DNA of 36,274 nucleotides from positions 1 through 36,274 of the forward strand of contig CBDUQR010000031.1 in the NCBI GenBank assembly GCA_965369655.1, written 5' to 3'. The notes under the pieces were generated by a model. The model did not search any database and had not been told where the DNA came from. It saw only the letters and a list, made by a program, of their open reading frames with translations. Below are positions 155 to 21,237 of this stretch, piece after piece; the first letter of the stretch is position 1, and every line of letters starts with the position of its first letter. The DNA comes from an uncultured bacterium (GTDB taxonomy: Bacteria; Zixibacteria; MSB-5A5; JAABVY01; JAHJOQ01). Both the position numbers and the translations under genes were made by a program.

Positions 155-227
155 GTGGGCGCAGACCCTTCGAAGCTCAGAACTCGCCCTTCGAGGCTCA
201 GGACTCGCGAGGACGTTTGCCGCCCAC
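155..227. repeat. REP-like hairpin (GTGGGCGCAGA|CGAGGACGTTTGCCGCCCAC) interrupted by two tandem 21-nt units
   Basis: The arms GTGGGCGCAGAC and GTTTGCCGCCCAC pair. Between them are cccttcgaagctcagaactcg (166-186) and cccttcgaggctcaggactcg (187-207). Confidence 0.8.
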
Positions 228-240
228 GGTTGTACTCGTT

Positions 241-285
241 CCGGCAGTTCTTGCGACCGCCGAAGGCGTGTGTGTGAACTGCCGG
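241..285. repeat. Palindromic element with a 10-bp perfect stem
   Basis: CCGGCAGTTC (241-250) pairs with GAACTGCCGG (276-285). There is an inner mini-hairpin CGCC-GAA-GGCG (258-268). Confidence 0.7.
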
Positions 286-339
286 TCCCTCGGGATCCCC
301 TCGCGGATCTGGGTCCAAGACGGGATCGGCGACCGAAAA
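285..339. repeat. Dispersed repeat block, shared with 17900-17931
   Basis: gtccctcgggat-[24 nt, 297-320]-cgggatcggcgaccgaaaa here, versus gtccctcggggatcgggatcagcgaccgaaaa at 17900. Confidence 0.75.
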
Positions 340-445
340 ATGGAAGCAATGTCTGACAAGGGCTTGCAGAAGATCGCCAGGTCACATCGACGACTCCGTC
401 GTCGCCAAGACCCGGCGAAACTAACAGGAGTTGGAATAGACAATA

Positions 446-493
446 GATTCCCGTAATATCCTGAGCACAGCGAAGGGCCTTCGCTGGAATGAC
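446..493. repeat. REP-like element GATTCCCG|CCTTCGCTGGAATGAC interrupted by a 24-nt unit
   Basis: The insert at 454-477 reverse-complements to cccttcgctgtgctcaggatatta, the same family as the units at 166-207 and 13601-13621. Confidence 0.75.
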
Positions 494-514
494 GTGTTTG
501 AGATTACGGTTTGC

Positions 515-1930
515 CTATTTGCCGGTGGCGTTCAGTACGGCCGGGATTGTCTTGAGAAGAATCTTTGTGTCGAGCCATAGAGACCAGTTGTCGATGTATT
601 GCAGATCGAGCTTCATCCACTCATCGAATGTCGTATCATTCCTGTCGCCAACCTGCCATAGGCATGTCATTCCCGGCTTCATCGACAGCTTGCGTCTCTG
701 CCACCTGTCGAATTGATGGACTTCCTCTGGAACGGGAGGTCTCGGACCAACCAGAGACATCTCGCCTCTGGTGACATTGATTAACTGTGGGAGTTCGTCG
801 AGAGAGGTCTTCCTCAGGAACTTTCCTATTCGGGTGATCCGGGGATCATCGGCAATCTTGAATGCAGCGCCATCGATCTCGTTCTTGCTCATCAGAGATG
901 CTTTGAGGTCTTCTGCGTTATCGACCATTGTCCTGAATTTGAAAACCTCGAAACGTCTTCCATTGAGGCCGCATCTCACCTGCTTGAAGAAAACCGGGCC
1001 GTGCGATGTCGCCTTGATTACGGCTGCGATAGCCATGAACAAAGGAGCAATTACAAGCAGGCCGAACAGTGCGCCGAGCCTGTCTATCAGGCTCTTGATA
1101 GCGATCTGGAACCTGTCATCAGAGACAGTACTATAGAGAATTGCCGGCCTTCCAAGGAATTCCGTCATGCGTTTTTTCGCGATATTCGTCGAGAGAAAAT
1201 CCGCCATGAGGCACGCCTGTGTGCCCATCTCTTCACAGATCGCAAAAGCCGATTCGATCTTGTCAAGATGCTCGTGACCTGTGGCGAATATCACGCAGTC
1301 TATATGGCGATTCTGGATTATATCCGGCAGCTCCGATAACGATCCGATCAGGGGAATATCGCGGTATCTCCACAGGGTAGTCATCTCCTGCCAGTCGAGC
1401 AGACCGACGACGGCATATCCCCATTCAGGATGCGCCTTCAATTTGTCCACAGCCCACTTGGCAAGGTCGCCGGTCCCGACCACGATCAGATTCTGGTTGT
1501 TGCGCCCCATTCTTCTGGCGATATGCAGTACCCTGAGGACAATTGCCCTTATTATGTAAAGCGACACGAAATCGAGAGTCACGAATGTTACGATGAAGGA
1601 TCTATCATACACGAGGGCGTTTATGGCGAACAACCATGACACAAGCAGGATCATACCGAGCGCTACCACACGCAGGACGTCTCTGAAAATTGCGCGATAC
1701 GGTTTCATTCTGTAGACGTAAGATTGCTTTTCACGGTGGATCAGGATTCCCCAGATAACACAGAGCATTATGACATTTTGCAACGAAAGTTGTCCCGGAA
1801 TGAGCGGCAATGGCGATCCGTTGTGATAAAGCGCTTCAAGCAGACATGTCGCTATGAACGCCAGACATGTCACCGCGATATCGAATCCAAAGTGAATTGT
1901 CCTGTATGCAGCGACTCGATCTTTGAACAC
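515..1930 (-). CDS. Priming polyprenyl-phosphate glycosyl-1-phosphate transferase (WcaJ/WbaP family)
   Basis: N-terminal TM helices and a C-terminal bacterial sugar transferase domain with FKFRTM, DPRITRIG, SLDELPQL, MSLVGPRP and PGMTCLWQV. Confidence 0.93.
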   Translation of the reverse strand: MFKDRVAAYRTIHFGFDIAVTCLAFIATCLLEALYHNGSPLPLIPGQLSLQNVIMLCVIWGILIHREKQSYVYRMKPYRAIFRDVLRVVALGMILLVSWLFAINALVYDRSFIVTFVTLDFVSLYIIRAIVLRVLHIARRMGRNNQNLIVVGTGDLAKWAVDKLKAHPEWGYAVVGLLDWQEMTTLWRYRDIPLIGSLSELPDIIQNRHIDCVIFATGHEHLDKIESAFAICEEMGTQACLMADFLSTNIAKKRMTEFLGRPAILYSTVSDDRFQIAIKSLIDRLGALFGLLVIAPLFMAIAAVIKATSHGPVFFKQVRCGLNGRRFEVFKFRTMVDNAEDLKASLMSKNEIDGAAFKIADDPRITRIGKFLRKTSLDELPQLINVTRGEMSLVGPRPPVPEEVHQFDRWQRRKLSMKPGMTCLWQVGDRNDTTFDEWMKLDLQYIDNWSLWLDTKILLKTIPAVLNATGK

Positions 1931-1933
1931 CTG

Positions 1934-3175
1934 CTACTCCATGATCTCCATCAGGTTATCCATATAGCTCGCAGCGATTTTCTCGCGTCGACAATGTGAT
2001 GACACGTAGCGCAGGCCGTTTTGTCCAAGACGATTCGCCAGCTTCCGATTGTCGTACAGTTTCAGGATCGAGTCGGTGAGGCTCTCGGCATTTTCAGGCT
2101 CGAAAGCGATCCCTGCCTCGGCGCTCTCGACCAGTCTCCTGGACTCGCCTTCCGTACCGATCAGAATCGGTTTGCCCGATGCCATGATTTCATATATCTT
2201 CGACGGTATATTCCTGGTGAACAGTGATGCCTTCCTCAAGGGTACAAGGCATGCATCTGAAGCTTTGTAGTAATCGACCGCTTCTTCATGTTTCATTTGA
2301 GGGAGGAACAGCATATTGTCGAGTCCGCGCTCGCGCGTTGATTTTTCGAGTTTCTCTTTCTCGGCGCCGTCGCCGATCATGATGAATTTGATGCGATCGT
2401 TGTCTTTCAATTTTTCAGCGGCGGAGACAACCGTTTCGAGTCTGTGAGCCATGCCGTGAGTACCGATATATGAAACCACGAATTCTCCATCGAGACTGTG
2501 CCTGCCTCTGATCTTCTCGACGTCGATATCGTGGGAGAATTCATCGAGGTCTATGCCATTCGGCAGCAATACGATCTTGTCTCTCGGTACGCCGCGGCTT
2601 GTTAGTATTTCTATCGTACCCTGGGCAACCGCGACGATCAGACTCGCTCTGCGGTAGAGGAACATCTCCATCCATTCGAGCAGGCGGATCACGAGACGAT
2701 TCCTGATCGCGCCGACCGCAACGATTTCTTCGGGCCAGACATCTCTCACCTCGAAGATAAACGGCGCGCGCTTGACGAGCGAAATCAGGTAGCCGGCTAC
2801 TGCGACGAAAAACTGCGGCGACGTCGCGATAACAACATCGACTTTCGGCAGACGAGGCAGCCCCAGGATGATCGATGAAAACATGAATGACAGGTAGTTT
2901 AATACGCGTTTGAGAAGACCTTTGTTCTTTGTCGCGTAAACGTATGTGCGGATGACATCTACGCTTTCGTCCTTCTCGGTCATCGTGAATTTGCCCGCAT
3001 ATTCCGGCGGGATGACGCCGGTCGGATGATTCGGAAAGCCGGTCAGCACAGTGACACGATGCCCCTGTTTAGTCCAGAGCTTTGCCAGTCTCGATACCCT
3101 GAGAGCCGGAGCATTTACCTCAGGTGGGTAATAGTGCGAAATGTAGAGAATCGACCTTCTGCGTTGACCAGTCAT
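1934..3175 (-). CDS. Glycosyltransferase family 4 (WbuB-like)
   Basis: YYPPE, TGFPNHPTG, FEVRDVWPE, YIGTHGMAH and PSKIYEIMASGKPI motifs. Confidence 0.9.
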   Translation of the reverse strand: MTGQRRRSILYISHYYPPEVNAPALRVSRLAKLWTKQGHRVTVLTGFPNHPTGVIPPEYAGKFTMTEKDESVDVIRTYVYATKNKGLLKRVLNYLSFMFSSIILGLPRLPKVDVVIATSPQFFVAVAGYLISLVKRAPFIFEVRDVWPEEIVAVGAIRNRLVIRLLEWMEMFLYRRASLIVAVAQGTIEILTSRGVPRDKIVLLPNGIDLDEFSHDIDVEKIRGRHSLDGEFVVSYIGTHGMAHRLETVVSAAEKLKDNDRIKFIMIGDGAEKEKLEKSTRERGLDNMLFLPQMKHEEAVDYYKASDACLVPLRKASLFTRNIPSKIYEIMASGKPILIGTEGESRRLVESAEAGIAFEPENAESLTDSILKLYDNRKLANRLGQNGLRYVSSHCRREKIAASYMDNLMEIME

Positions 3176-3220
3176 TGTGCCCTCAATCTGGTTTCGGCGA
3201 CCCCAAGCCTGATGCGCTCA

Positions 3221-5380
3221 TCAGGAGCCGACTCGGACAGGTTTTCCGGTTGAAAGCGATTTGAGGACTGCGAAAGTCGATCTCGTCACTGCACATGCTG
3301 ACTCGAATTCCGCCGTCAGATCATCGCCTCCCAGGAAATGTGCGGCAAATGCCTCAATCTCGTTCTTGTGTCCCTTGTCCTGGCTGCCCGAATGGAGTTT
3401 CGTCCGCTTGCCATCGCGGTACATCTCGGCAGACTTGAAATCATTGATCACGAAGCTCGCGCCACCTGAGAATATCTCGAATCTTTCCTTGGGCATTCCC
3501 GCTCCCCCGTTTGCCGCGTAAGTTATCGAGCCGGAAGAACCGTCTCCAAACCTGACCAGTATCTGTACGTTGTCGCTGTTGAGATACTGCCTGCCCCCGT
3601 TTTCAGCGCAACCGGCGAACACTTCGACCGGAGCCGATCCAGCCATGAACGACATCAGATCGATGAAATGACACACCTCGCCAATGATTCTGCCTTTTCC
3701 GATTTTATCGTCCTGGAGTATGCTTTCTTTAGGAATGAAGCCTGCGTTGATGCGATAATTGAACAGTGCCGGGTACGGTATGTCTTCGAGCCTGCTCTTT
3801 ATCGCGAGCGCTGCAGGAGAGTATTTCCTATTGAAACCGACCATCAGTTGCGCTGAGTTGGACATCATAGCTTTCTCGACATTCCGCAACTCTCTTTCTG
3901 ATGTTGCGAGCGGTTTCTCCACGAAGACCCATTTGCCTGCTTCGAGCGCGCGCACAACCTGACCTGCGTGCATATTGTGCGGAGTCAGCACCATCACTGC
4001 GCCGATCTGCGGATCCTCGAAGACCCTGTCGAAAGATGTCGTTGCAGACTGAAACCCGAACTGCTTCGCTGCAGAGAGCGACTTGAGACCGTTGGGCGCC
4101 GCAAGCGTGCGACAGATGATTTTCTTGTTGTCGCGTAAGGCTGGAAACAGCACTCCCGTAGCAAATGGCCCCGCTCCACACGCGCCGATCACAAGTCTGT
4201 CGGTTTTCGGCGGAGACATCGGAGCTAACGAGATCGTCTTCACGGACTTCACGTCCTTGCGATACCTGAGGACAATCCCAAGATGAGGCTCAGGAGTCTT
4301 GCCTGTCACAATCGAGTACGCCTTCTCGGCGTCTTTGCAGTCGAATGTGTGAGTGACAAGTTTGTCGAGCCTGATCTTTCCTTCGGCGATCAGATCGAGA
4401 AAAGCAGCCATATTTCGTCGCTCGGTCCACCGCACATATCCGATTGGATAATCGTGTCCCATCTCTTCGTACTGTCTGTCGTATCGTCCCGGGCCATAAG
4501 AGCGGGATAGATTCAGGGACAGCTCCTTGTCATAGAGCGGTTTCCTGTCGAGTTCCATCCCTACTGCTCCCACGACTGTGATATGTCCTCTGTCGCGCGC
4601 GATCTGAGATGCCTGCCTGATTATCTCAGATGATGCAGTAGCGGCTGTTATTATCACTCTGTCGACGCCGATGCCGCCGGTGAAATGCGTCACCGATCGC
4701 TCGAATTCATCGGATGAATTGTCGACTGCCAGATCGACGCCGTTTTCGACAGCGAGATCGATCTTGCTCCTGTCGATATCGAGTCCGATCACGCGGCATC
4801 CCGCCGCCTTGAGCATCTGGAGAGTAAGCTGTCCGAGAAGACCAAGTCCAAAAACAGCGACATTCTCGCCGAGTTCGACTTTCGCTTGCCGTACGCCCTG
4901 CATAGCTATCGCGCCAAGTGTTACGAATGAACCGTCGCGGAACGAGACATTAGCAGGGAGTTTGACGACAAGGTTCTTCGGTACGAAAATTATTTCGGCA
5001 TGACAGGCATATCCGAAACCGGCGCAGGCGACTCTCTCGCCTGTTGCGAACTCGGAAAGTTCGGGGGATATGTTCTCGATAACTCCCGCCGACGAATAGC
5101 CGAGTGGAATGGGGGATTGCAGGCGCGACCTGACTTTGTTGAATGTCGACCGAATGCCCTCGGTCCTGACCTTCCCGATCACCTGTTTCACGAGATCGGG
5201 GCGCGACCTTGCCTTGGCGACAAGGTTTTTCTCGGCCAGCCCGATGATCGCGCGCTCAGTTCCGGCGGATACGAGCGAGCAGACATTTCTGACGATCACT
5301 CCGCCCTCTCGCAGGGCGGGAGACGGAACTTCTTCGATTCTGAGCATATTCTTTTTCGGATATTGAACCACTTGTTTCAT
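3221..5380 (-). CDS. Bi-domain oxidoreductase (Zn-type/MDR dehydrogenase fused to Gfo/Idh/MocA)
   Basis: SLVSAGTE, PLGYSSAG, GLGLLG and SRSYGPGRYD in the N-domain; EKPLA, MVGFNR and GEVCHFID in the C-domain. ATG at 5380 has a GGAG RBS. Confidence 0.9.
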   Translation of the reverse strand: MKQVVQYPKKNMLRIEEVPSPALREGGVIVRNVCSLVSAGTERAIIGLAEKNLVAKARSRPDLVKQVIGKVRTEGIRSTFNKVRSRLQSPIPLGYSSAGVIENISPELSEFATGERVACAGFGYACHAEIIFVPKNLVVKLPANVSFRDGSFVTLGAIAMQGVRQAKVELGENVAVFGLGLLGQLTLQMLKAAGCRVIGLDIDRSKIDLAVENGVDLAVDNSSDEFERSVTHFTGGIGVDRVIITAATASSEIIRQASQIARDRGHITVVGAVGMELDRKPLYDKELSLNLSRSYGPGRYDRQYEEMGHDYPIGYVRWTERRNMAAFLDLIAEGKIRLDKLVTHTFDCKDAEKAYSIVTGKTPEPHLGIVLRYRKDVKSVKTISLAPMSPPKTDRLVIGACGAGPFATGVLFPALRDNKKIICRTLAAPNGLKSLSAAKQFGFQSATTSFDRVFEDPQIGAVMVLTPHNMHAGQVVRALEAGKWVFVEKPLATSERELRNVEKAMMSNSAQLMVGFNRKYSPAALAIKSRLEDIPYPALFNYRINAGFIPKESILQDDKIGKGRIIGEVCHFIDLMSFMAGSAPVEVFAGCAENGGRQYLNSDNVQILVRFGDGSSGSITYAANGGAGMPKERFEIFSGGASFVINDFKSAEMYRDGKRTKLHSGSQDKGHKNEIEAFAAHFLGGDDLTAEFESACAVTRSTFAVLKSLSTGKPVRVGS

Positions 5381-5382
5381 TT

Positions 5383-6645
5383 CTATCTCCACTGATGTTC
5401 GATCAACTGTTTGTTATCTTCAGCGACAGGTGTTGTCTGGTGCGAAGAAGACTGTCGCTCCATGTACTCTGTCGCCGGATGTCCGGAGACTTCTCTGATG
5501 AACTCGGCTGTCATTTCTGCTGTCCGCCTCCACGAGAAAAACTCCGCCCTGTGTTTAGCCGACCTCCTGAGACCGGAACGCAGGGCATCATCATCGAGCA
5601 CTCTCTTAGCTGCGTCGCATATTGAACTTGGATCGTGTGGATCAAAGAACAGGGCCGCCTCGTCGAGGACTTCCGCGCACAGGCGCGTGTTGGATGCCAC
5701 TATCGGCGCACCGGCCTGAAGCGCCTCGATGAGTATCAACGAGGCCGATTCGAGCCATGACGGAAAGATGAAAAGATCACAGGATGAGTAGAGTCCTGCA
5801 AGTGTCGAGTAGTCCACCGATCCGACCATGCGTACCTGCGATTCCAAATCGTGTGACGAGATGTAGTCTCTAATCTCTCGGGCGTATCTCTTGTCATAAC
5901 ACTCGCCCGCCAGCACGAGAGTCATCTGTCTGCCGGAAGATCGGCGCAGGAGATCGAACGCCTGTACGACTTCGAGGATGTTCTTGTAGCGATATATATG
6001 TGAGCAACAGAAAATCAACTGCCCCTCGATATTGAATTGTTTCTCGATATTTCTGCGTGTCGTCAGTTTCGAGACATGTCTGTCTGTCCCCATGTAGATC
6101 ACGCGCTGTGGGATGTTATTGAGATCAAGACTGTCTGCGACAAAACTGCGCGCAAAGTCTGTCAGATGAATTACGCCGGAGGCGCTTTTCATCGAGAGGC
6201 GCGTTGCAAGTCGGAGCATGTGGAGCCTGAGTCTGCTAAGAAGCGATTCGCCTGCGATAAATTCGGGGCTGAAAGGCGCGAGGTTGTGGATAAGCAGTAT
6301 GCGCGGGACAGGACTGCCCATCATGCCGAGATTACCCGGCTCAAAGAGAATATCGATATCCAACCGTTTCAGTTCTCTGCGCAGCACTGTCTGTTCCCAG
6401 AGCAGACGATGCAGCAGGCTTCTCGCCGGAAAAGAATAGAATCGGTATTCTATGTCGTTTCTCTTCGGCAGATCGAAATCACGTTGAGCATTCGACAGGA
6501 ATACGACGATTTGAGTGTCCTGCTCTCTGGGGAAATACTGGAGTAGCTTTTCGAGATGTCTTCGACCGCCGCCGTCAACTAACTGGGTTGCCTTGATTCC
6601 GATTCTCATGGTAGCGGCTGTATCAGCGTTTTCACCGATCTCCAT
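5383..6645 (-). CDS. Glycosyltransferase family 4
   Basis: YKNI, FIFPSWLESASLILIEALQAGAPIVASN and ALFFDP GT-B motifs. An alternative start at 6609 is possible. Confidence 0.88.
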   Translation of the reverse strand: MEIGENADTAATMRIGIKATQLVDGGGRRHLEKLLQYFPREQDTQIVVFLSNAQRDFDLPKRNDIEYRFYSFPARSLLHRLLWEQTVLRRELKRLDIDILFEPGNLGMMGSPVPRILLIHNLAPFSPEFIAGESLLSRLRLHMLRLATRLSMKSASGVIHLTDFARSFVADSLDLNNIPQRVIYMGTDRHVSKLTTRRNIEKQFNIEGQLIFCCSHIYRYKNILEVVQAFDLLRRSSGRQMTLVLAGECYDKRYAREIRDYISSHDLESQVRMVGSVDYSTLAGLYSSCDLFIFPSWLESASLILIEALQAGAPIVASNTRLCAEVLDEAALFFDPHDPSSICDAAKRVLDDDALRSGLRRSAKHRAEFFSWRRTAEMTAEFIREVSGHPATEYMERQSSSHQTTPVAEDNKQLIEHQWR

Positions 6646-8766
6646 TCATGCGTGCGTATGCTTGAGCGTGAGCTTCTGCGAGCTTTCGGCTGTACCGTCC
6701 ATCCATTTCATATCTGCGATTATCTGCTGTGCCACTCTCCGTTTCCTTGACAACTCCCCGCTGCTTCTCATCGGAATTGCCGCCCAGACCATAGATGCCG
6801 GGGCGTTGCCAGTGAGGGAGAAATCGATTCTCTCGGCATTGCACTTCATTCCATAAAGAGGCGAGACTTCATGTGTCACGATTTCGAAATCCCACTCTCG
6901 ACTGAAGATGACGATATCGAGTCTTCTCTCTTCAATTCTGGACTCAAGCGATATGTGAGATGAATCGACCACTCTCGGTTCTACATCGCCGAGTATCAAC
7001 CTGTCTGCGAAATCGAATTCGCCGCCTCCGTAGAAATCATCCTTGATGATCCACAGGCCGTGCGGTTTGTCGAAGTAGACGGACCTGAGTACATGGATCG
7101 GATCCGGCAATCTTGAGTATGCCGAGTGCTCGGCCTCGATGAGATCGAAATCATCGTTCGACTCCCATCGATTGACCTTCACCTTGGCGTCGGGGCGAAT
7201 GGCGAACAGCAGTTTGGGAAGGAATCGATTCTGCTCTTCTTCGTTTATTGCAGGTACAGAGTGATATGCTGTCGATCTGAATCTGTCGCGGTCTGCCTGA
7301 TTCGATGTATACCTGTAAGTCCCGGAATCAACGATGAAGTTGGTGTTGCCGCAGCTTATCTCGATCGTGAGCATGTCGTTGTGTTTGTGGCCGCCGATTC
7401 CGCCCGAACCTATCGGGTTCGCCGCCAGAAAAAGGTAAAGATCATCTTCTCTGAGCGTAGCAAGACCTGAATCGGAATAGTAATGTGATTCTCTTTGTTG
7501 TCGCGGAGCATCAGCGGTAGATCGAAGCGTCTCCATGATTTCGGCTCCCGCCAGCCATACGGAATCGAAAGGCGGTTTTTTCGAGTGCGACCTGAGATGT
7601 GGCATATCGAGGATCAAGGCGCCGATGTCGAGCAGTCTCTGCGGGTCGGGTCGATCTACTCCATTGAAAACGAGGATTCGGCCTGAATCGCCGTCGCCAA
7701 AATTCGGGATCGATCCGTCCGGCTTGAGGAACACCCAGATCAACTCGAACATTTTCTTGAGCCTGTTGCGATATCCCTCTGAGAAGCCGTTGAACTTCGA
7801 CTCGACCAGATATGCGAGCAGGTATATCTCAGATGTGAGGAGTTGATAGTTCATTGATGATTCGAAACAGAAACCGTCGGGAAGAGTCTGAAGCATGATC
7901 TCTTTTTCGAGCTCATCGACTGCAAATTTTCGCCACTTGTCTCCGCGGTCGGTTCCTCTGAAGAGATTGCCTGCGACAATAAGCCCGAGCAGATCGGTCA
8001 GGTAGTGATTCGAGTTCAGACCGTTACCGATCACCTCGATATTTTCTTCGATATAGACAGCGTGCTGATAGACATGCCTGTAGAATCTGCGCGTGAAATC
8101 GAGGTCCAATACATCGTTGTCCTTGATGATCTCGAACGCCGCAATCCAGTTGAGCATTCGGATCGCGACTTCCATCGCACAGGTCCAGTTGATGCCGTAC
8201 GGATAGGAATTAGACTCGGTCCAGTCGTCGATCAGTTCGACGAACTTGCGGACATAGCGATCGTCATCGGTGAATTTCCACGCCTGCGCAAGCCAGACGA
8301 GATAGTGTCCTCTCGACAGTTCCCAAGGTACTTTGAGGTCGGATTTATTGTGCCACATCACGAGCGGCACCGCGAGATAGTAATTTTTCGCCCAGTGTAT
8401 GCCGGATACGAAATCCTTCTCCCACTCGATACCATCGTGGAACTGATGGGGCTGAAAGCCAAGGACCCTGAAAGTGTCGGTCGTGGTCTCATCGGCGCGG
8501 GTGACTATCCGGTCGACAGTGTCACTGTAATAATCCCGTGCGATTTGCAGCAGACGGTGGCGATCATCCGGAACGAGAACACTCTGACCCGATACCAGAT
8601 CAGCGAGACACTCCTCCGGGGATTTGAGTCGTGATCCATTCGTGAGAATGGCGTCGAATTCGTGGGAGCTCAGCGGCTTCTTCTTTATCGCTGTAGATAA
8701 CATCCGCTTCGCAACCCTCCTTAACTTACGTGCCGCTCTGGCGGTGAAAGCGTCGATGAATGCCAA
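6646..8766 (-). CDS. Heparinase II/III-like (alginate lyase-fold) protein
   Basis: DLKVPWELSR, GINW-CAMEVAIR, SNHY, GDGDSGR, GGHKHND, DSGTYRYT and FRSTAYHS motifs. Confidence 0.88.
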   Translation of the reverse strand: MAFIDAFTARAARKLRRVAKRMLSTAIKKKPLSSHEFDAILTNGSRLKSPEECLADLVSGQSVLVPDDRHRLLQIARDYYSDTVDRIVTRADETTTDTFRVLGFQPHQFHDGIEWEKDFVSGIHWAKNYYLAVPLVMWHNKSDLKVPWELSRGHYLVWLAQAWKFTDDDRYVRKFVELIDDWTESNSYPYGINWTCAMEVAIRMLNWIAAFEIIKDNDVLDLDFTRRFYRHVYQHAVYIEENIEVIGNGLNSNHYLTDLLGLIVAGNLFRGTDRGDKWRKFAVDELEKEIMLQTLPDGFCFESSMNYQLLTSEIYLLAYLVESKFNGFSEGYRNRLKKMFELIWVFLKPDGSIPNFGDGDSGRILVFNGVDRPDPQRLLDIGALILDMPHLRSHSKKPPFDSVWLAGAEIMETLRSTADAPRQQRESHYYSDSGLATLREDDLYLFLAANPIGSGGIGGHKHNDMLTIEISCGNTNFIVDSGTYRYTSNQADRDRFRSTAYHSVPAINEEEQNRFLPKLLFAIRPDAKVKVNRWESNDDFDLIEAEHSAYSRLPDPIHVLRSVYFDKPHGLWIIKDDFYGGGEFDFADRLILGDVEPRVVDSSHISLESRIEERRLDIVIFSREWDFEIVTHEVSPLYGMKCNAERIDFSLTGNAPASMVWAAIPMRSSGELSRKRRVAQQIIADMKWMDGTAESSQKLTLKHTHA

Positions 8767-8839
8767 CCAACCATCCCATTTATCATGTTCACACCACTAC
8801 ATGTGTCGCTCATAGTGGCATGGCCATCCTGGCCATGCT

Positions 8840-10015
8840 TCACGGGCTGGAAGCCCGTGCCACTTCCACTTCTTCACCCGTCCGAATTGACTCTTTTATC
8901 TTGATAGAATCGATATCAAAGAACTTATCGATTGCATCTACAATTCGAGGCGCTGTGGACCCATCCCACAGAATCGGTCGACCCTTACCTGCGCTGCGAC
9001 CGTCTATGTATTCACCAGCGAGCTCGATCACTCTTGTCGGATCGAGTCCAACGAGGGTGTTAGTTCCATCGGTGATCGTGACAGGTCTTTCCGTGTTTGG
9101 TCTGACAGTCAGGCATGGCACTCCGAGATATGTCGTCTCCTCCTGAACGCCCCCCGAGTCGGTCACTACGACCGCCGCATCCTTTTCGAGTTTGAGAAAT
9201 TCGAGGTAGCCGAGCGGTTCGACGAGATGCAGGTTCTTGTTGCCCAGAATTGAGTCCCCGCCGATCGAGAGCTCGAATTCGATAATGTTCTTTCTCGTTC
9301 GCGGATGGATCGGAAATACGACAGGCGCAAGCTCCGCAAGTCCTGAGAGAATCTCGACGATCTTCCTGAGTTGTTCGCTGTTATCCACGTTCCCGGGACG
9401 ATGCATCGTGATCAGGATATAGTCGCTGAGACCCAGGTCTTCTGCGACAGTCATTCTCTCAGCCATCGGGAGAAACTTGCTGAGCGAATCGATCATAATA
9501 TTGCCGACGAAATGAATCGAATCTTCGGAGACGCCCTCTCGAACGAGATTCCGGTTTGCATCTTCGCATGTCGTGAAGTGCAGTGTGCTAACCCTGTCCG
9601 CGACGATCCGGTTTATCTCTTCGGGCATACTCCAGTCGTTGGACCTGAGACCAGCCTCGACATGCGCGACAGGTATTTCGAGCTTTGCCGCTGTGATTGC
9701 GGTGGCGAGAGTCGAGTTGACATCCCCGAACACGACGACCATATCAGGATCGAGATCGAGCATGACTTCTTCGATAGCGATCATGACCTTGCCGGTCTGA
9801 ACCCCGTGAGAGCCGGAACCGACGCCGAGATTGATGTCCGGCTTCGGGAGGCCAAGCTGCCGGAAGAAGACGTCGGACATCCTGTCGTCGTAGTGCTGAC
9901 CGGTATGGACCACGAACGGTCGATACGATTCCCTGCGTTTACCAAGGGCCTCGTGGAGAGGGGCGAGCTTCATGAAATTGGGACGTGCGCCTGCAACCAG
10001 CAGTATCGTTTTCAC
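8840..10015 (-). CDS. wecB: UDP-N-acetylglucosamine 2-epimerase (non-hydrolysing)
   Basis: GARPNFMK, HTGQHYD, GDVNST, HVEAGLRS, MPEEINR, TDSGGVQEE and TERP motifs. GTG start at 10015 follows GAGG. Confidence 0.95.
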   Translation of the reverse strand: MKTILLVAGARPNFMKLAPLHEALGKRRESYRPFVVHTGQHYDDRMSDVFFRQLGLPKPDINLGVGSGSHGVQTGKVMIAIEEVMLDLDPDMVVVFGDVNSTLATAITAAKLEIPVAHVEAGLRSNDWSMPEEINRIVADRVSTLHFTTCEDANRNLVREGVSEDSIHFVGNIMIDSLSKFLPMAERMTVAEDLGLSDYILITMHRPGNVDNSEQLRKIVEILSGLAELAPVVFPIHPRTRKNIIEFELSIGGDSILGNKNLHLVEPLGYLEFLKLEKDAAVVVTDSGGVQEETTYLGVPCLTVRPNTERPVTITDGTNTLVGLDPTRVIELAGEYIDGRSAGKGRPILWDGSTAPRIVDAIDKFFDIDSIKIKESIRTGEEVEVARASSP

Positions 10016-10028
10016 ATTTGCCTCTCTG

Positions 10029-12413
10029 CTACAGTTTGTCCACGATGTAGACTGTTGTGGCAAGGCCGCCGACAATTGTCGCAGTGCTGGTGAGAATCTT
10101 CCACCAGTCCCGCTGCCTTTTGATCTGTGTCGGAACCACTATGGCATCGCCGAGATCAGTTGCTTTGCCACGTGCCTTGCTCCAATTGAGCACTCTGCCG
10201 TCCGCTTTGACGACCCTTATACTATTCTTATCGGAATTACGCAGTAATCCACCAGCTCTGTCGATGTAGTACGAAGGCTTCTTGCCTGTTTCGAACTGGA
10301 TTGTGCCGCTCGATGCTATTGCTCCCATCACCTGGACGCCGGATGGCATCCTCGGAATGTAGATTTGATCTCCCGGACGCAGCGGCAGGTATTTGCTCAT
10401 GCCGTTGTTATTTAGGATCAGATCGAGATCGATTACGATTCTGTTCATCTTCTCGGTATTGACATCGAAGGCAAGCTCTCGGTAGATTCTGCCTGTCGAA
10501 TCTTCCTTGAGAGGAGCTGACTTCGTGATGATATCGGAAATATTCTGTCTTCGGAGATCATCGGCTATCTGAGCGCGAGTGAAAACTGCTCCCGCCGGGA
10601 ATGCCTTTTCAGTCAATCCCCCCGCTCTATGAATCAACTGATAGAGCGACTCGCCGTCATGCGAGAGGATGTACTCACCCGGAAAGCGGACTTCGCCCTG
10701 GATCGCAACGATTCGATTCTCATCCCAGGCGGGCATCTTCCTGATGAATACCTGGTCATCCTCGGCAAGCGCGACATCGTAAGTCTGGTCGCTATCTTCT
10801 ATCAGCTTGTCCAGGCTGACATGGAACAATTCTGTTTCGCCCTGATCGGTCATTCGTGCGATCTCTGCTGAGAGCAGGTATGCGTTGCGGTTGAGATTGC
10901 CTGCCCTGAATATCAGGTCCGAGAGTTTCATGTTCTCGAGCAGGCGATACCTTCCGGGGTGCGCAACCTCACCCTTGATCCAGACATACTTATCGCGTGT
11001 CACATCTGATGTGGCGTATACGATCAGGCTGTCCTTCGCCTGAAGCACGATTTCGACTGAATCCTGACCGCCGGTGATTCGACTAAGATTGATCGGAATG
11101 ATTTCTTTGCTGCCGTTGGGGTGTGTGCGAATCAGGTCGGCGCGCTCCATGTACGCATCTTCGTAGAGCTGATCGCCATTCGATATCAACTCCGAGACGA
11201 TCGAGTGCATCTCGATCTGAAACGCTCCCGGATGTTTGACATGGCCGTCGAGCCAGACGATATTTACGCGAAGGCTGTCCTTCGGATGAATCGTGACAAC
11301 GTCGCCGCCACGCATGGCAAACTGACTATTGTCGACAGAAGCGTTACTAAGATCAACATCGAGCGCTATCCTGTCATCGTTCTTCCCGATTCTGTCGACA
11401 GCAACCTTACTCGCGTATGCTCCCGGCGTCATGCCACCAGCGAGATCGACAACTTCGTCGATAGTCTCACCCCCGAGCAGTTCATAGATCGCTGGCCTGC
11501 GTACTTCGCCATAGACCTTGACCAGATCGCCTGCGAGTGGGACAAAGATCACATCCTCCGATTCGAGCTTTATATCTCCGGAGGAATCGCCGAACAGCAG
11601 GAATCTGTACAGATCAACCGTCTGAATCGTATTTCCGCCTCTCAGGAGACGAATCTTTCGCATGCTTCCGCGTGCGTTAGGACCACTGGCCGAGTAGAGA
11701 CCGTTGAAAAGGGTCGACAGCGAACTGAGTGTATAGCGTCCGGGCTGTTTTACTTCGCCGTAGACATACACGCTTATCGAGCGGATCTTGCCGAGCGTCA
11801 CGCTCAGATTGAACTCACTATAGATTTCTGAGAATCTCTTCTTTAGTCGGGTTTCGAGATCGTCGAGAGAAAGACCGTAGCAGATAACATCGCCGACTCT
11901 GGGAATGAATACTTTTCCTTCACGGTTGACCGTCAGATTGAATTCCTTGTCGACCCGTCCCCACATATTGATGATGAGGTTGTCTCCCGGGCCAATACTG
12001 TAATCGGGGGGTGCAGCCGCTATCTCAGGAGGCGAAAAGCCGACCGATCTGTCGGTGAACATGTCGAAACCGAATATCTTCAGCGTGTCCGGCTCGGGAG
12101 CCAGGATAGTCCGAATGCCAGAATCGGGTGAAATGACTGAAGACTCTCCAGACTCGAAGCCAGCATCGGTACCTTCGTACGATTGAGCTTTGCGAGCCAG
12201 GGAATCCTCGAAAATGTCCGGGGATGTGTATGCTCCTGAGCGATCAGGTGTTAGAGATGTTCTTGATCTAACATACTCTTCGGTTATGGCTTTCTTCGAT
12301 CTCTCGTACTCATCCGAGAGTTGATGGGCATCTTTCTGGGATGTCCCGGACGCGAGAAGATTCGAACTGAGAAGAATCGCCAGACCTGTGGCACGAATAA
12401 TCGAAAGTTTCAT
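10029..12413 (-). CDS. Polysaccharide export protein with multiple SLBB repeats (Wza/KpsD-like)
   Basis: Signal peptide, FGFDMF, DYSIGPGD, repeated GEV-xPGxY SLBB units and a C-terminal amphipathic helix. GAGG RBS. Confidence 0.9.
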   Translation of the reverse strand: MKLSIIRATGLAILLSSNLLASGTSQKDAHQLSDEYERSKKAITEEYVRSRTSLTPDRSGAYTSPDIFEDSLARKAQSYEGTDAGFESGESSVISPDSGIRTILAPEPDTLKIFGFDMFTDRSVGFSPPEIAAAPPDYSIGPGDNLIINMWGRVDKEFNLTVNREGKVFIPRVGDVICYGLSLDDLETRLKKRFSEIYSEFNLSVTLGKIRSISVYVYGEVKQPGRYTLSSLSTLFNGLYSASGPNARGSMRKIRLLRGGNTIQTVDLYRFLLFGDSSGDIKLESEDVIFVPLAGDLVKVYGEVRRPAIYELLGGETIDEVVDLAGGMTPGAYASKVAVDRIGKNDDRIALDVDLSNASVDNSQFAMRGGDVVTIHPKDSLRVNIVWLDGHVKHPGAFQIEMHSIVSELISNGDQLYEDAYMERADLIRTHPNGSKEIIPINLSRITGGQDSVEIVLQAKDSLIVYATSDVTRDKYVWIKGEVAHPGRYRLLENMKLSDLIFRAGNLNRNAYLLSAEIARMTDQGETELFHVSLDKLIEDSDQTYDVALAEDDQVFIRKMPAWDENRIVAIQGEVRFPGEYILSHDGESLYQLIHRAGGLTEKAFPAGAVFTRAQIADDLRRQNISDIITKSAPLKEDSTGRIYRELAFDVNTEKMNRIVIDLDLILNNNGMSKYLPLRPGDQIYIPRMPSGVQVMGAIASSGTIQFETGKKPSYYIDRAGGLLRNSDKNSIRVVKADGRVLNWSKARGKATDLGDAIVVPTQIKRQRDWWKILTSTATIVGGLATTVYIVDKL

Positions 12414-12592
12414 TATTACCTCTTCCTAACTCCTATTTAGAAAGATGCTATCTCGTTCTGAAACAGTACAAACAGCGTGCCCATTGCTGGCTGACATGTA
12501 AGCTATTGCAATGGAATGGATAACGAGAAGCCTGGGTCGATGGCGGAGCGATCCCTGTGGAAAGAAATGCGGATCAGATTGGAACTTTTTTC

Positions 12593-13501
12593 TTAAGTCA
12601 GTTCAGAATCTATGAGCGCGAAGGCTTCTGCCAATGGGAGCGGTTTCGTACTGAGGGTCTCAAGCGCCAATGATATATCGAGTCCGGCGCGGAGAGGACG
12701 TTTCGCCGCGCGAGCCAACCCAGACAGCTCGATGGCCTCGACGAGCGAATCGGTGAATCCGAAGTGCCGAGCGACTAAAGATGAAAATTCGTATCTCGAC
12801 AGATACTCCGGGCCTGCGATATGGATTATACCAGTCAGATGAAGCGAGACAGCTTCTCTTATACTCTCGGCGAGGTTAGCCGTCCACATTGGATTGCAGT
12901 AGAGGTCGGATGCAACCCGGACAGTCTCGCCCTTTTTCAGGCGATCGTAGGTCGACGAGAAGAGGTTAGTTTTTCCCGCATGGCCGCAGTCATAGAGGGC
13001 GCATGTTCTGATTACCAGCGCATCGATTCCCGATTTCCGGACAGCTTCTTCAGCTTGCAGTTTGGTCCGGCCATACGTATTCAGCGGGTTTGGAACCGTC
13101 TGTTCAGCGTATTGACCATCCCCGCCACCGAAAATGTAGTCTGTCGATATCTGTACGAAGTAGAGGTCGTGACTGCTTGCTGCGTTCAGCAGATTCTCGA
13201 CAATGCCACAGTTGAGCCTGTATGCCATCGCCGGATCGGACTCACAACCGTCGACGTCTGTGGTCGCGGCGCAGTTAATGATAATTGCCGGAGCGATCTC
13301 CGCGAGCAATTGTTCGGCTTGTCGATGATCGGTCAGGTCGCAAACTCTCGCATCGACACCGCTCGACTCAATCAGGCTGTTGCGGAATACGACAGCAGTA
13401 ACATCATAGTCATCAGTGAAAACCGGGATAAGCCTTCTGCCGAGCAGTCCGCTCGCACCGGTTATCAGTATATGTTTCCTGGAGTTTGTTGAAAAACCCA
13501 T
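12593..13501 (-). CDS. rmlD: dTDP-4-dehydrorhamnose reductase family
   Basis: GASGLLG, TDVDGCE, ISTDYIF, YGRTK and AKRP motifs, plus rml operon context. Confidence 0.88.
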   Translation of the reverse strand: MGFSTNSRKHILITGASGLLGRRLIPVFTDDYDVTAVVFRNSLIESSGVDARVCDLTDHRQAEQLLAEIAPAIIINCAATTDVDGCESDPAMAYRLNCGIVENLLNAASSHDLYFVQISTDYIFGGGDGQYAEQTVPNPLNTYGRTKLQAEEAVRKSGIDALVIRTCALYDCGHAGKTNLFSSTYDRLKKGETVRVASDLYCNPMWTANLAESIREAVSLHLTGIIHIAGPEYLSRYEFSSLVARHFGFTDSLVEAIELSGLARAAKRPLRAGLDISLALETLSTKPLPLAEAFALIDSELT

Positions 13502-13523
13502 CTCAGCTCACATTTCTGGCGTT

Positions 13524-13639
13524 GTCATCACGAGGAGCGCAGCGACGTGGTGATCTCAGTTTTTGTAACGCGATGCCAACATGAGATTGCCACACTCCCT
13601 CCCTTCGAGGCTCAGGACTTGTCGGTCGCTCGCAATGAC
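13524..13639. repeat. REP doublet (GTCATCACGAG...CTCGCAATGAC) with a 21-nt unit inserted in the right REP
   Basis: Left unit gtcatcacgaggagcgcagcgacgtggtgatctc (13524-13557). Right unit gagattgccacactccct[cccttcgaggctcaggacttg, 13601-13621]tcggtcgctcgcaatgac. Lies between rmlB and rmlD. Confidence 0.85.
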
Positions 13640-13696
13640 GGTGAATTCCAGCCATCACTCTAAACGATATATCAACTAACTTTTTCAGAATACCCC

Positions 13697-14701
13697 TTAG
13701 AGTGAGCCATATTGTTTCCGGCAGTATTCTTCGTATTCTTTCGTCCGATGTTTCTTCAGCCAGTCCGGATTGGCACGATACCACTCGACTGTCTTCACGA
13801 GCGCTTTCTCGAAATCATACCTCGGCAGCCATCCGAACTGATTGATGAACTTGCTGCCGTCAGTCGAGTATCTCTGATCATGCCCCGGCCTGTCATCGAC
13901 AAAGCGAATCAGGTCATCGCCTTTGCCCATCATCGACACAAGATTCTTCACCAGATCAATATTCCTGATCTCGTTCTTCGAAGAGAGATTGAATATCTCT
14001 CCGGTCACAAAACCATCGATGGCAAAATCCATCGCGTGGCAGAAATCGTCCGTATGTAGCCAGGTTCTAGTCTGCATGCCGTCACCGTATACGGGAACCG
14101 GAAGTCCCCTCGAAAGCCTGTCGATAAACAACGGGATAATCTTTTCCGGATACTGATATGGTCCGAGATTGTTTACCGGTCTCAGGATCATGACATCGAG
14201 ACCGTGGGTTCTGTTCGCCGCCATCAGTAGAAGATCCGCAGCAGCCTTGGATGCCGAATAGGGTGAACTCGGTCGCAGCAACGTTTCCTCCGTGAAGGAT
14301 TCATCTGCGGCCGTCGAACCGTAGACTTCATCTGTCGATATATGCAGGAGTGAAATTGACCTCATGCGACATTGATCCGCGAGCACCTGCACACCATAAA
14401 CATTGGTCCTGATGAAATCGGACGGATACATGATCGATCGGTCAACATGCGTCTCGGCGGCGAGATTGATGACCATGTCGATGCCTGAATCGAGCGCATC
14501 CGATACCTGTCCCGGCTCGCAGATGTCGCCCTGGATGAATGCCACTCTCTTGTCGGATATGAGTCGCCTGATATTCGATTTGGTTCCCGCGTACGTCAGA
14601 AGGTCGAAAACCGTGAGATGATATTCGGCGCGATTCTCGGCGAGGAAATGAACGAGATTGGTCCCGAGGAAACCACAGCCTCCGGTTATCAGGATGTTCA
14701 T
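13697..14701 (-). CDS. rmlB: dTDP-glucose 4,6-dehydratase
   Basis: GGCGFLG, AAETHVDRSI, HISTDEVYG, YSASK and DRPGHDQRY motifs. Confidence 0.95.
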   Translation of the reverse strand: MNILITGGCGFLGTNLVHFLAENRAEYHLTVFDLLTYAGTKSNIRRLISDKRVAFIQGDICEPGQVSDALDSGIDMVINLAAETHVDRSIMYPSDFIRTNVYGVQVLADQCRMRSISLLHISTDEVYGSTAADESFTEETLLRPSSPYSASKAAADLLLMAANRTHGLDVMILRPVNNLGPYQYPEKIIPLFIDRLSRGLPVPVYGDGMQTRTWLHTDDFCHAMDFAIDGFVTGEIFNLSSKNEIRNIDLVKNLVSMMGKGDDLIRFVDDRPGHDQRYSTDGSKFINQFGWLPRYDFEKALVKTVEWYRANPDWLKKHRTKEYEEYCRKQYGSL

Positions 14702-14709
14702 CCGAAGGC

Positions 14710-15165
14710 TTACCTTTCTTTCAGCTTCCAGTCGTATGGGATGTCGTTGTCATGCGGGTCGACTCGCATCTCGTCGGGAGCTTCGTAGTCGTATGTCCTG
14801 TCAGGAATGTTGAGCGCGATGGCGGGACCGTCTCCGATCGCCTTGAAACCGTGGTATACGCCGGGCGGAATCTGGATCAGCATCGGAGATCTCTCTCCGA
14901 CGAAGAACTCGCTAATCTCTCCCCTGGTTGATGAACCATCGCGTCTGTCATACAGGACAAACTTGGCCATGCCGGAGACAATCGTGAAATTGTCGGTTTG
15001 CTCCTTGTGGTAGTGCCACGCCTTCACAACGCCCGGATACGCCATTGTCACGTAGGCCTGCCCGAACTGAGTGAATTGGTCATCGTCGTTTCTCAGCACC
15101 TCCATCAGGTAGCCGCGTTCGTCCGGAACGATTTTCAGCTTCTTAACAATCACACCATCAATCAC
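14710..15165 (-). CDS. rmlC: dTDP-4-dehydrorhamnose 3,5-epimerase family (RmlC/SpsL-like cupin)
   Basis: DERGYLME, PGVVKAWHYH and IPPGVYHGF motifs, plus operon context. Confidence 0.88.
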   Translation of the reverse strand: MIDGVIVKKLKIVPDERGYLMEVLRNDDDQFTQFGQAYVTMAYPGVVKAWHYHKEQTDNFTIVSGMAKFVLYDRRDGSSTRGEISEFFVGERSPMLIQIPPGVYHGFKAIGDGPAIALNIPDRTYDYEAPDEMRVDPHDNDIPYDWKLKER

Positions 15166-15913
15166 GTATTATCTCCATGCTTTGCGTTTTCTGTTCCCGA
15201 ACGAGCCGCGATGCTTCGTGCAGCGACTCGAATGTTCCGCAATCGCTCCACCAACCGTTCAGATAGCCGTATGACAGATTGCCTGACGCTATATACGAGT
15301 TGGATACATCGGTAATCTCGTACTCGCCGCGATCCGACGGTTCGAGAGTGCGAATTATGTCGAATACCCTGCTGTCATAAAAATAGATACCGACGACTGC
15401 GTATGGCGATTTAGGACGGTTCGGCTTTTCCTCTATACCGATCAGCTTTTCGCCGTCGAAAACCGGCACGCCGAATCGCTCGGGGTCCGGGACATTCTTA
15501 AGCAGTATTCGCGCTCCTTCGCGTTGCGATCTATAGTTTTCGAGTTCGAAATCTAAGTCATCCTCAAAAAGGTTGTCGCCTAATACGACGCATATTCTTC
15601 TATCGGCAGCGAAATCCTCGGCGAGAGCGAGAGCGGCAGCTATACCATCCTCGCCGACCTGTGTCGTAAACTCGATACTTGTACTCTGGAATCTGCGCTC
15701 GTTCCTGAGAAGCTGCTCGAAATCATCCTGATTGCCTTCACCGCACACGATGAGAATATCGTCTATGCCCGCCCGGATCATCTTTTCGAGCGGGTAGTAG
15801 ATCATCGGCTGATCGTAGACCGGGAGCAGATGCTTGTTGGCTACGCGTGTAAGCGGATCAAGCCGTCTGCCGAGTCCGCCCGCGAGTATCACGCCTGCGA
15901 TTTCGTTTTTCAC
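15158..15913 (-). CDS. rmlA: Glucose-1-phosphate thymidylyltransferase (RmlA/SpsI-like)
   Basis: GVILAGGLGRRL, NKHLLPVYDQPMIYYP, LGDN, EEKP, RGEYEITD and WSDCGT motifs. Confidence 0.93.
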   Translation of the reverse strand: MKNEIAGVILAGGLGRRLDPLTRVANKHLLPVYDQPMIYYPLEKMIRAGIDDILIVCGEGNQDDFEQLLRNERRFQSTSIEFTTQVGEDGIAAALALAEDFAADRRICVVLGDNLFEDDLDFELENYRSQREGARILLKNVPDPERFGVPVFDGEKLIGIEEKPNRPKSPYAVVGIYFYDSRVFDIIRTLEPSDRGEYEITDVSNSYIASGNLSYGYLNGWWSDCGTFESLHEASRLVREQKTQSMEIIRD

Positions 15914-17864: not shown

Positions 17865-18004
17865 GTAGGTCGGTGTTCCGCAGCAGGCGAAGCCTGCAAG
17901 TCCCTCGGGGATCGGGATCAGCGACCGAAAACCCGACTGCAGGTCAGCAAGATAGAAGTGTCGCGTTTCTCATCCCGCCCTGCGGGATTCGGAACACGAC
18001 CTAC
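17865..18004. repeat. GTAG-type REP doublet (REPIN-like) with nested mini-palindromes
   Basis: Termini GTAGGTCGGTGTTCCG and CGGAACACGACCTAC. Inside are GCAGGC-GAA-GCCTGC (17883-17897), the shared block 17900-17931 and ATCCCGC-CCT-GCGGGAT (17972-17988). Confidence 0.85.
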
Positions 18005-20706: not shown

Positions 20707-21237
20707 ATGAAACTGAAACACTATGACCATGATGGGTGCGCACGGTTTGTAACATTCGGAGTCCATCGCCGTATCCCCGTGCTAACTAATTCTGTATTTC
20801 GACGCTTAGTGATCCAGTGCATTGACAATATCCGAAACGAATACGAACTGCGATTGGTCAGCTACGTGATAATGCAGGAACATGTTCATCTCGTTCTAAT
20901 CCCACCGGATGAAGTGAAGCTTGGCTATGTTATAGGTGAAATAAAACGAATCTCGGCAAGGCAGATTCATAGACATCTTAATAACACCGGGAGCGTGTTG
21001 ACGAGCAGATTCATGGTCAACCGAAATGGCCGAGAGAAATTCGCTTTCTGGCAGCGAAGATGTTTCGATCACAACTGCAGATCAGAGGAAGCGATGTGGA
21101 GTAGAGTAGAGTACTGCCATAAGAATCCTGTTCTTCGAGGCTTGGTTGCGAGACCTGAAGATTGGATATGGTCGAGCTATCGTTGGTATACGGGTGATCG
21201 GAAAGTTGTCCTTCGGATGGATGTTGATATTGAATAA
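20707..21237 (+). CDS. REP-associated tyrosine transposase (RAYT/TnpA-REP, HUH Y1 family)
   Basis: FVTF, HUH motif YVIMQEHVHL, FWQRRCFDH, catalytic YCHKNPV and GLV-xxPEDW-xWSS. Flanked by inverted GTAG REPs. Confidence 0.92.
   Translation: MKLKHYDHDGCARFVTFGVHRRIPVLTNSVFRRLVIQCIDNIRNEYELRLVSYVIMQEHVHLVLIPPDEVKLGYVIGEIKRISARQIHRHLNNTGSVLTSRFMVNRNGREKFAFWQRRCFDHNCRSEEAMWSRVEYCHKNPVLRGLVARPEDWIWSSYRWYTGDRKVVLRMDVDIE

Follow-up and report, generated by a model that had tools for sequence, protein, structure and literature searches.

A short hairpin unit nested in repetitive extragenic palindromes of an uncultured Zixibacteria bacterium, and a candidate GIY-YIG nuclease associated with its parent repeat

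Nested copies at the locus

The window analysed here is the whole 36,274-nt stretch of contig CBDUQR010000031.1, from an uncultured bacterium of the Zixibacteria. It contains four copies of a short element, termed micro-unit A (unit A), which interrupt three repetitive extragenic palindromes (REPs). An initial annotation made from the letters alone had reported these four copies, and all were recovered at the positions listed here. Copies 2 and 4 had been described as 20/21 identical, and they do differ at one of 21 bases.

166..186, forward strand: unit A copy 1, 21 nt, leading a tandem pair
187..207, forward strand: unit A copy 2, 21 nt, second of the tandem pair
454..477, reverse strand: unit A copy 3, 24 nt
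13601..13621, forward strand: unit A copy 4, 21 nt
155..227, reverse strand: host 1, a GTGG-tagged REP broken by the tandem pair 1 nt from its loop; its left part has diverged here
446..493, reverse strand: host 2, a CGTC-type REP that fits the published NTS consensus (the Ssn target), broken by unit A 1 nt from its loop
13583..13639, reverse strand: host 3, a CGTC-type REP with unit A within the loop of its inner hairpin
13524..13557, forward strand: partner REP of host 3, inverted and uninterrupted

The pair type formed by host 3 and its partner also flanks an Ssn-like gene at C1:281 kb.

The unit A pattern was matched four times in the window and not at all across 100 dinucleotide shuffles. 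In the source genome (G000; 2.99 Mb in 100 contigs), to which all counts refer unless another source is named, 134 strict copies were found, compared with none in one order-3 Markov simulation, and allowing one mismatch gave 288 cores in 262 runs. Three runs at contig ends and 27 without the usual two tail bases after the core were set aside, leaving 232 runs, 206 of which lie outside long ORFs and were treated as intergenic. The unit is 21–25 nt long and occurs within hosts singly or as head-to-tail tandems, not mostly as inverted dimers. Tandems of two to four units, some of unlike variants, made up 19 runs.

Edges and empty sites

When the unit was deleted at a fixed start, 82 of 232 runs gave a 22-nt junction with an exact match at another place in the genome, compared with 7 of 1143 control deletions made nearby. 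With up to one mismatch allowed, the proportions were 127 of 232 runs and 11 of 1141 equal deletions nearby. Exact matches peaked at start offsets −1 and 0 (82 and 75 of 232), which differ by one ambiguous C, while no other offset gave more than 12. The tail was 4 or 5 nt long in 123 of the 127 runs with an empty match. Empty and filled core forms numbered 20 vs 15 for the GTGG-type host, 70 vs 37 for the NTS-type host and 2 vs 3 for host 3. The junctions and boundaries first proposed for the window were right, with empty hosts in the genome for all three host types. For the individual window copies, the junctions of 454–477 and 13601–13621 had 12 and 2 matches at up to one mismatch, and that of 166–207 had none in the genome at this threshold because its left flank has diverged. 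A laxer test (up to two mismatches, 48 boundary options) returned 202 of 232 runs, yet also 307 of 919 controls, and was dropped.

The 48 distinct junction types comprise 39 with C as the next target base, seven with T and two with G; in 38 the base before the junction is a purine. In six of the seven T types the unit nevertheless begins with C, so this C belongs to the unit and no target base is duplicated. A one-base target duplication had been considered and was ruled out by these junctions. The absence of a target duplication, as first proposed, thus followed both from the T-target junctions and from the edge test. These results support unit A as a discrete non-coding unit with fixed edges that inserts without target duplication.

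It is very improbable that the pattern is an artefact of short-repeat assembly. Contigs from public sequencing runs do break at these repeats, but the unit is shorter than the usual assembly words, comprises 87 core variants in this genome and turns up again in independent genomes, in metagenomes and in viral contigs. The artefact explanation is refuted for the unit as a class, while single chimeric loci could be artefacts.

Insertion at hairpin tips

After deletion of the unit, 166 of the 206 intergenic runs lay no more than two bases from a loop with a closing stem of seven or more pairs. Two sets of control positions gave 354 of 3000 and 422 of 6000, and a third, taken near units, gave 440 of 6000 (7–12 %). 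Most of the remaining 40 runs look, by eye, like decayed or bulged hosts, and no free-standing true copy was recognised when the runs without an empty match were read by eye. The suggested enrichment inside palindromes was thus borne out genome-wide, and uninterrupted hosts exist, so that both refutation tests set out in the initial annotation left its proposal standing. The related claim, that hairpin structure and not sequence is targeted, held in its first part, with tips far above chance, and needed amendment in its second. Insertion took place ahead of a pyrimidine in 46 of 48 junction types, a weak site preference that amounts to a purine–pyrimidine bias only.

The hosts span both REP superfamilies, the GTAG/GTGG type and the CGTC type (one fitting the NTS consensus). 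There are at least 12 host/site classes: the twelve defined here accommodated 195 of the 232 runs, with 37 outside. Variants of unit A mostly follow host class, which indicates that most copies are probably co-amplified passengers of host repeats and not the products of separate jumps. The original interpretation as a mobile unit was supported in part, for its discrete, edged character and not for the bulk of its copies. Five whole unit A sequences are common to more than one host class, and one host was struck in both arms. Of 178 single copies assigned to a class, 132 are 21 or 24 nt long, also where they lie between genes; because the copies are kin, this excess of multiples of three is no more than a hint. 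At two loci (C25+8720 and C71+159), unit A links left and right halves that come from different hosts, through recombination or misassembly.

An explanation without any dedicated mobility was also weighed, in which breakage at hairpin tips is occasionally followed by repair or template switching that brings in the arm of a neighbouring REP, only inserts sparing the host stem or the reading frame survive selection, and co-amplification and gene conversion account for the remainder. The tracking of host families by unit variants fits this explanation, as do the chimeras of left and right host halves, a host-plus-unit composite common to the source genome and its relative G005, and longer pieces of the parent repeat with flank at the same site in G072. 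It is nevertheless unlikely, since in an unbiased scan for inserts in repeats the recurring short families among the listed loci (at least 343) were unit A and a second unit, unit B, whereas arms from the abundant REPs that serve as hosts were not among them. An identical edge is also found across the 48 junction types and in unrelated genes. Moreover, purely random insertion would leave many free-standing copies, because tips make up about 7 % of intergenic positions.

Structure and parent repeat

Read on the TCCTGAG strand, unit A has a 5′ tail of 4–6 nt. A short stem containing a tandem G.A/G.A mismatch comes next, then an inner pair and a loop, and the 3′ end of the unit falls exactly at the stem foot. 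In copies with a 7-nt middle, the inner pair was G-C in 79 and a compensatory A-T in 18, with 11 more showing a wobble on that strand; these copies are kin and not independent. Folding models undervalue tandem G.A pairs; energies computed with ViennaRNA DNA parameters were near zero, and folding gives no support to the structure.

Like CGTC-type REPs, unit A is repeated, extragenic and a short imperfect hairpin; it lacks the terminal CGTC/GTC tag, and its tails vary. Comparison with tagged forms showed unit A to be the tag-less 5′ hairpin arm of a widespread CGTC-type REP. Among 251 genomes of the phylum, 106 contain this parent as an intact, free REP with a GTC-type tag, and in one genome (G047) the tag-less unit lies within the loop of its own parent. 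At loci L056 and L052 (G072, G050), a 45-nt piece of the tagged parent with flank occupies a host site used by the short unit, with the hairpin-side edge fixed and the far edge variable. At L025 and L030, the inner hairpin of a CGTC-type REP is replaced, not interrupted, by unit A.

Relatives, metagenomes and copies within genes

The congener G001 carries 106 empty NTS hosts and no strict unit A; four relaxed matches were found there, none within NTS. In a spacer orthologous between the source genome and G001, the latter has different REP arrays, so no clean empty allele was available. Family members G003–G005 have unit A in GTAG/GTGG hosts, and G005 shares one host-plus-unit composite with the source genome. 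A search of the species-genome collection for the exact NTS-plus-unit composite returned four stretches, none a true composite. A REP-motif screen of flanks in that collection (74/109, 74/129) had no control and was not used. Beyond these genomes, at least 121 metagenome loci matched a one-tail form of the pattern, and at least 134 loci of viral contigs matched a shorter form.

Some of these copies lie within genes. For a tail-sheath gene (PF23844), 72 of 80 homologues could be anchored at the site: 63 were empty, eight carried exactly 24 additional nucleotides and one carried a decayed insert of 15. Six of the eight filled homologues are still clearly unit A, and the in-frame inserts probably go back to one event. 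An HsdS fragment has 61 residues, compared with 53 in plasmid homologues, and an ATE_C fragment has 58 residues over 50 profile positions. Apparent in-frame copies were seen at L216, L210, L218, L175, L268 and L258, in hemF-like, WD40, ATE, HsdS and other genes of metagenome contigs. Pfam gave no match for 8 of 11 gene fragments, and PDB none for one. The view of unit A as a parasite of REPs accordingly fits the many REP hosts of the source genome and is too narrow elsewhere, where the unit is not exclusive to REPs, lies in frame in single-copy genes and shows modest tip enrichment in metagenomes.

Candidate enzymes

Profile searches gave five Y1 matches (four genes like REP-associated tyrosine transposases, RAYTs) and three GIY-YIG matches, none of them flanked by unit A. 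The nearest unit to the five Y1 matches was at least 7 kb away. For GIY-YIG genes, the nearest unit lay 300 nt from an Ssn-like gene, nested in another REP. Among 18 Y1 loci of five relatives, a unit fell within the 3-kb locus in three, and the two placeable ones were at least 400 nt away. The window itself contains one such gene:

20707..21237, forward strand: RAYT gene with its own GTAG REPs (NF047646, 98 bits, cut-off 80)

This gene has no flanking unit A; it was considered as the mover and was unsupported. It adjoins a tRNA gene, is flanked by its own GTAG REP pair and has an 81 % identical paralogue on C76. A family search also found a Y1-like remnant at C23:20421-20732, in frame with the end of a 1072-residue methyltransferase-like ORF. 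DUF559 and reverse transcriptase families were not found in the genome, and 19 short repeat-flanked ORFs, examined by eye, yielded no new enzyme candidate.

A Y1/HUH enzyme, as suggested in the initial annotation, thus found no backing in flanking genes, and the lead points instead to a GIY-YIG clade flanked by the parent hairpin. Insertion by a RAYT would require the enzyme, while bound at a neighbouring REP, to cleave an exposed loop just after a C and to insert the unit there through strand transfer. HUH chemistry both cuts and joins and leaves no duplication. TnpA-REP is described in PMC8266576 as cutting between C and T, C and A or C and C and as accepting an attacking oligonucleotide. 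The one-base C ambiguity at most junctions (39 of 48 targets continue with C), the four RAYT-like genes and the many GTAG/GTGG-type hosts agree with such a role. Besides the distance of units from Y1 genes here and in relatives, the GTAG guide is absent from unit A, the shared C is missing at T-target junctions and in unit B, and G001 has Y1 genes and hosts yet no strict unit A. We consider a RAYT an improbable mover.

In relatives, the tagged parent REP flanks small stand-alone GIY-YIG nuclease genes. The pairing of this GIY-YIG subgroup with this repeat was at first presumed and was then tested in this analysis. A tree of 35 proteins contained a seven-member clade (support 96/91) with the parent hairpin beside six of the seven genes; in a sister clade the hairpin stood beside three of six, and beside none of the other 22. 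Among the 29 best phylum matches to the clade, the hairpin lay within 300 nt in 22 and on both sides in 13, compared with 2 of 49 control windows. The parent REP was present in 25 of the 29 genomes with a strong clade match and in 81 of 222 without one. Of those 29 genomes, 26 belong to one family, within which the parent was present in 25 of 26 vs 36 of 69. A Sphingomonas record has the same hairpin-beside-nuclease layout, and the hairpin pattern used here was not matched beside a Methylobacterium relative of the nuclease. In the NTS-flanked GIY-YIG clade, none of 14 genes had the parent or the unit within 150 nt, compared with six of seven in the other clade; this Ssn clade was named from its NTS flanks, not by alignment to Neisseria SsnA. 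The nearest solved relatives of the clade nuclease, one example of which is encoded at L506:1417-1716 on the reverse strand, are UPF0213 proteins. At L079, L084, L523 and L524, all in relatives, small GIY-YIG genes have a tRNA gene on one side and a repeat of that tRNA gene's 3′ end on the other, with a parent-like hairpin upstream in some.

The association identifies the parent REP as the flanking repeat of this GIY-YIG clade. A small single-domain GIY-YIG nuclease is the best, though still putative, candidate for the mover of unit A.

Unit B and other features of the window

The scan for inserts in repeats covered at least 343 loci, of which 61 were unit-like by filter, and it also showed unit B, 27–28 nt long and with empty sites. 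Its end motif has 81 matches genome-wide. Unit B is inserted in REPs, including host 3, and in two cases in unit A; further modules are nested within it. By inspection, its reverse strand has a 5′ tail, a stem with tandem G.A and a flush 3′ end, as in unit A; it has no shared junction C. Two copies lie in the window:

286..336, forward strand: unit B, 51-nt form with a further nested module
17901..17928, forward strand: unit B, 28 nt, within a GTAG-type REP

Positions 515–15913 hold a polysaccharide biosynthesis cluster (sugar transferase, RmlD-like protein, epimerase) with REPs in its spacers. An Rfam search gave two tRNAs and nothing else.

Comparison with known repeats

The small dispersed repeats (SDRs) of Nostocaceae, treated by Elhai and colleagues in 2008, are reportedly 21–27 nt long, structured, crowded among other repeats and present in frame within genes, and their mover is said to be unknown. 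Unit A resembles SDRs in being 21–25 nt long, dispersed and precisely edged. It differs in occupying the tips of many unrelated REP families with a weak base preference (48 junction types), whereas SDR5, according to PMC4390886, inserts precisely inside the palindrome HIP1; unit A has no such fixed palindromic target. Further differences, again at the level of description, are that unit A can be traced to an identifiable REP arm, has a candidate nuclease and is spread over many lineages.

In contrast to miniature inverted-repeat transposable elements (MITEs), unit A is an asymmetric tail-plus-hairpin without terminal inverted repeats or target duplication. Insertion sequences (ISs) that target REPs encode their own enzyme and are kilobases long, and Rickettsia palindromic elements are several times longer than unit A. 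Both are named in PMC3733652; the former insert into REPs as unit A does, and the latter lie in frame within genes. The same paper (Di Nocera et al. 2013) describes CGTC-tagged REPs, REPs nested in 'target palindromes' and intragenic in-frame REPs. The parent of unit A is a CGTC-type REP, and nesting and in-frame copies in genes are known for that type. The cases given there are, however, whole tagged REPs or dimers with one host palindrome per species, whereas unit A is a single tag-less arm found in a dozen hosts, in itself and in tandem.

Ssn nucleases, in the portions of Chenal et al. 2025 (PMC11893778) consulted, are encoded by small GIY-YIG genes flanked by NTS/SRM hairpins and make a strand-specific cut a few bases 5′ of the hairpin. 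The likeness lies in host 2, which fits the NTS consensus, in the small hairpin-flanked GIY-YIG genes and in the 5′ cut, which is that of SsnA. The nuclease of the parent REP belongs to another GIY-YIG clade, however, and those portions report only cutting and make no mention of nested inserts. With REPs, bacterial interspersed mosaic elements (BIMEs), REP doublets forming hairpins (REPINs) and their RAYTs (TnpA-REP), as well as with IS200/IS605 elements, unit A shares single-stranded hairpin substrates, the absence of target duplication and a non-autonomous nature (PMC8266576, PMC6006769 and PMC3116915). It differs from the REP/REPIN–RAYT systems in having no GTAG/GTGG guide at the hairpin foot, in not being a doublet, in being at most about one-third of their size and in flanking no Y1 gene. 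Unit A thus behaves like an SDR or a nested REP, but its tag, dimer form or enzyme sets it apart from the REP, NTS, REPIN and MITE families. No description of unit A was found in the literature searched, from which subscription journals were largely absent and supplements were excluded.

Proposed origin and significance

The explanation we favour, tentatively and at slightly less than even confidence, is that the clade nuclease frees unit A, which is joined into unpaired DNA and then multiplied with its hosts. By analogy with SsnA, the nuclease would cut single-stranded DNA a few bases 5′ of a parent-type hairpin, freeing a tail-plus-hairpin oligonucleotide; a cut at that position would yield a short variable tail. 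The oligonucleotide would be joined without duplication wherever DNA is unpaired, chiefly at the tips of other hairpins when these are exposed in single strands, and such tips are the sites observed. The RAYT or Ssn systems that belong to the hosts would then multiply filled REPs, which recombination would shuffle. Most of the roughly 200 copies in the source genome may have arisen in this way from a dozen or more founding insertions and tandem additions, and within genes only in-frame 24-nt inserts would persist, to judge from three genes.

Several observations weigh against this explanation. GIY-YIG enzymes cleave DNA and are not known to join it. The clade nuclease was not found in the source genome or its family sample, and the tagged parent had no copies there and was not found in four family genomes sampled, so loss or non-assembly of both has to be assumed in the genome with the most copies seen. 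The nuclease is flanked by the tagged parent and not by the tag-less unit; seven of the 29 clade genes have no hairpin, and 81 genomes have the parent without a strong clade match. No empty match at up to one mismatch was found in the genome for 105 of 232 runs. No filled/empty pair at one locus was seen within the species, where contigs of four public runs over a 12-kb stretch with nine units break at repeats. Tip enrichment outside the source genome was modest to weak (30/124 vs 162/1235 and 25/123 vs 167/1219). Finally, SsnA cleavage depends on the three bases before the palindrome, according to PMC11893778, and these bases are altered in unit A.

A wider proposal is speculative, and we regard it as rather doubtful: that small stand-alone GIY-YIG nucleases drive a transposase-free mobility in many phyla by releasing tail-plus-hairpin oligonucleotides of 21–28 nt, which end up joined into loops of single-stranded DNA and into genes. 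On this view units A and B would exemplify a general class of minimal mobile DNA, and the same route would also explain the spread and diversification of CGTC-type REPs. Given the precedents of SDRs, nested REPs and intragenic REPs, no new category is called for unless the mechanism proves new.

Unit A is one of the smallest insertion units known, and its nesting reveals at least three layers of selfish DNA. A recurrent eight-residue insert in unrelated proteins is likewise explained by it. With its exact edges, known empty and filled sites, defined active strand and candidate nuclease clade, unit A makes the question of how REPs, and above all those of the CGTC type, are copied testable with oligonucleotides and a single protein of about 100 residues.

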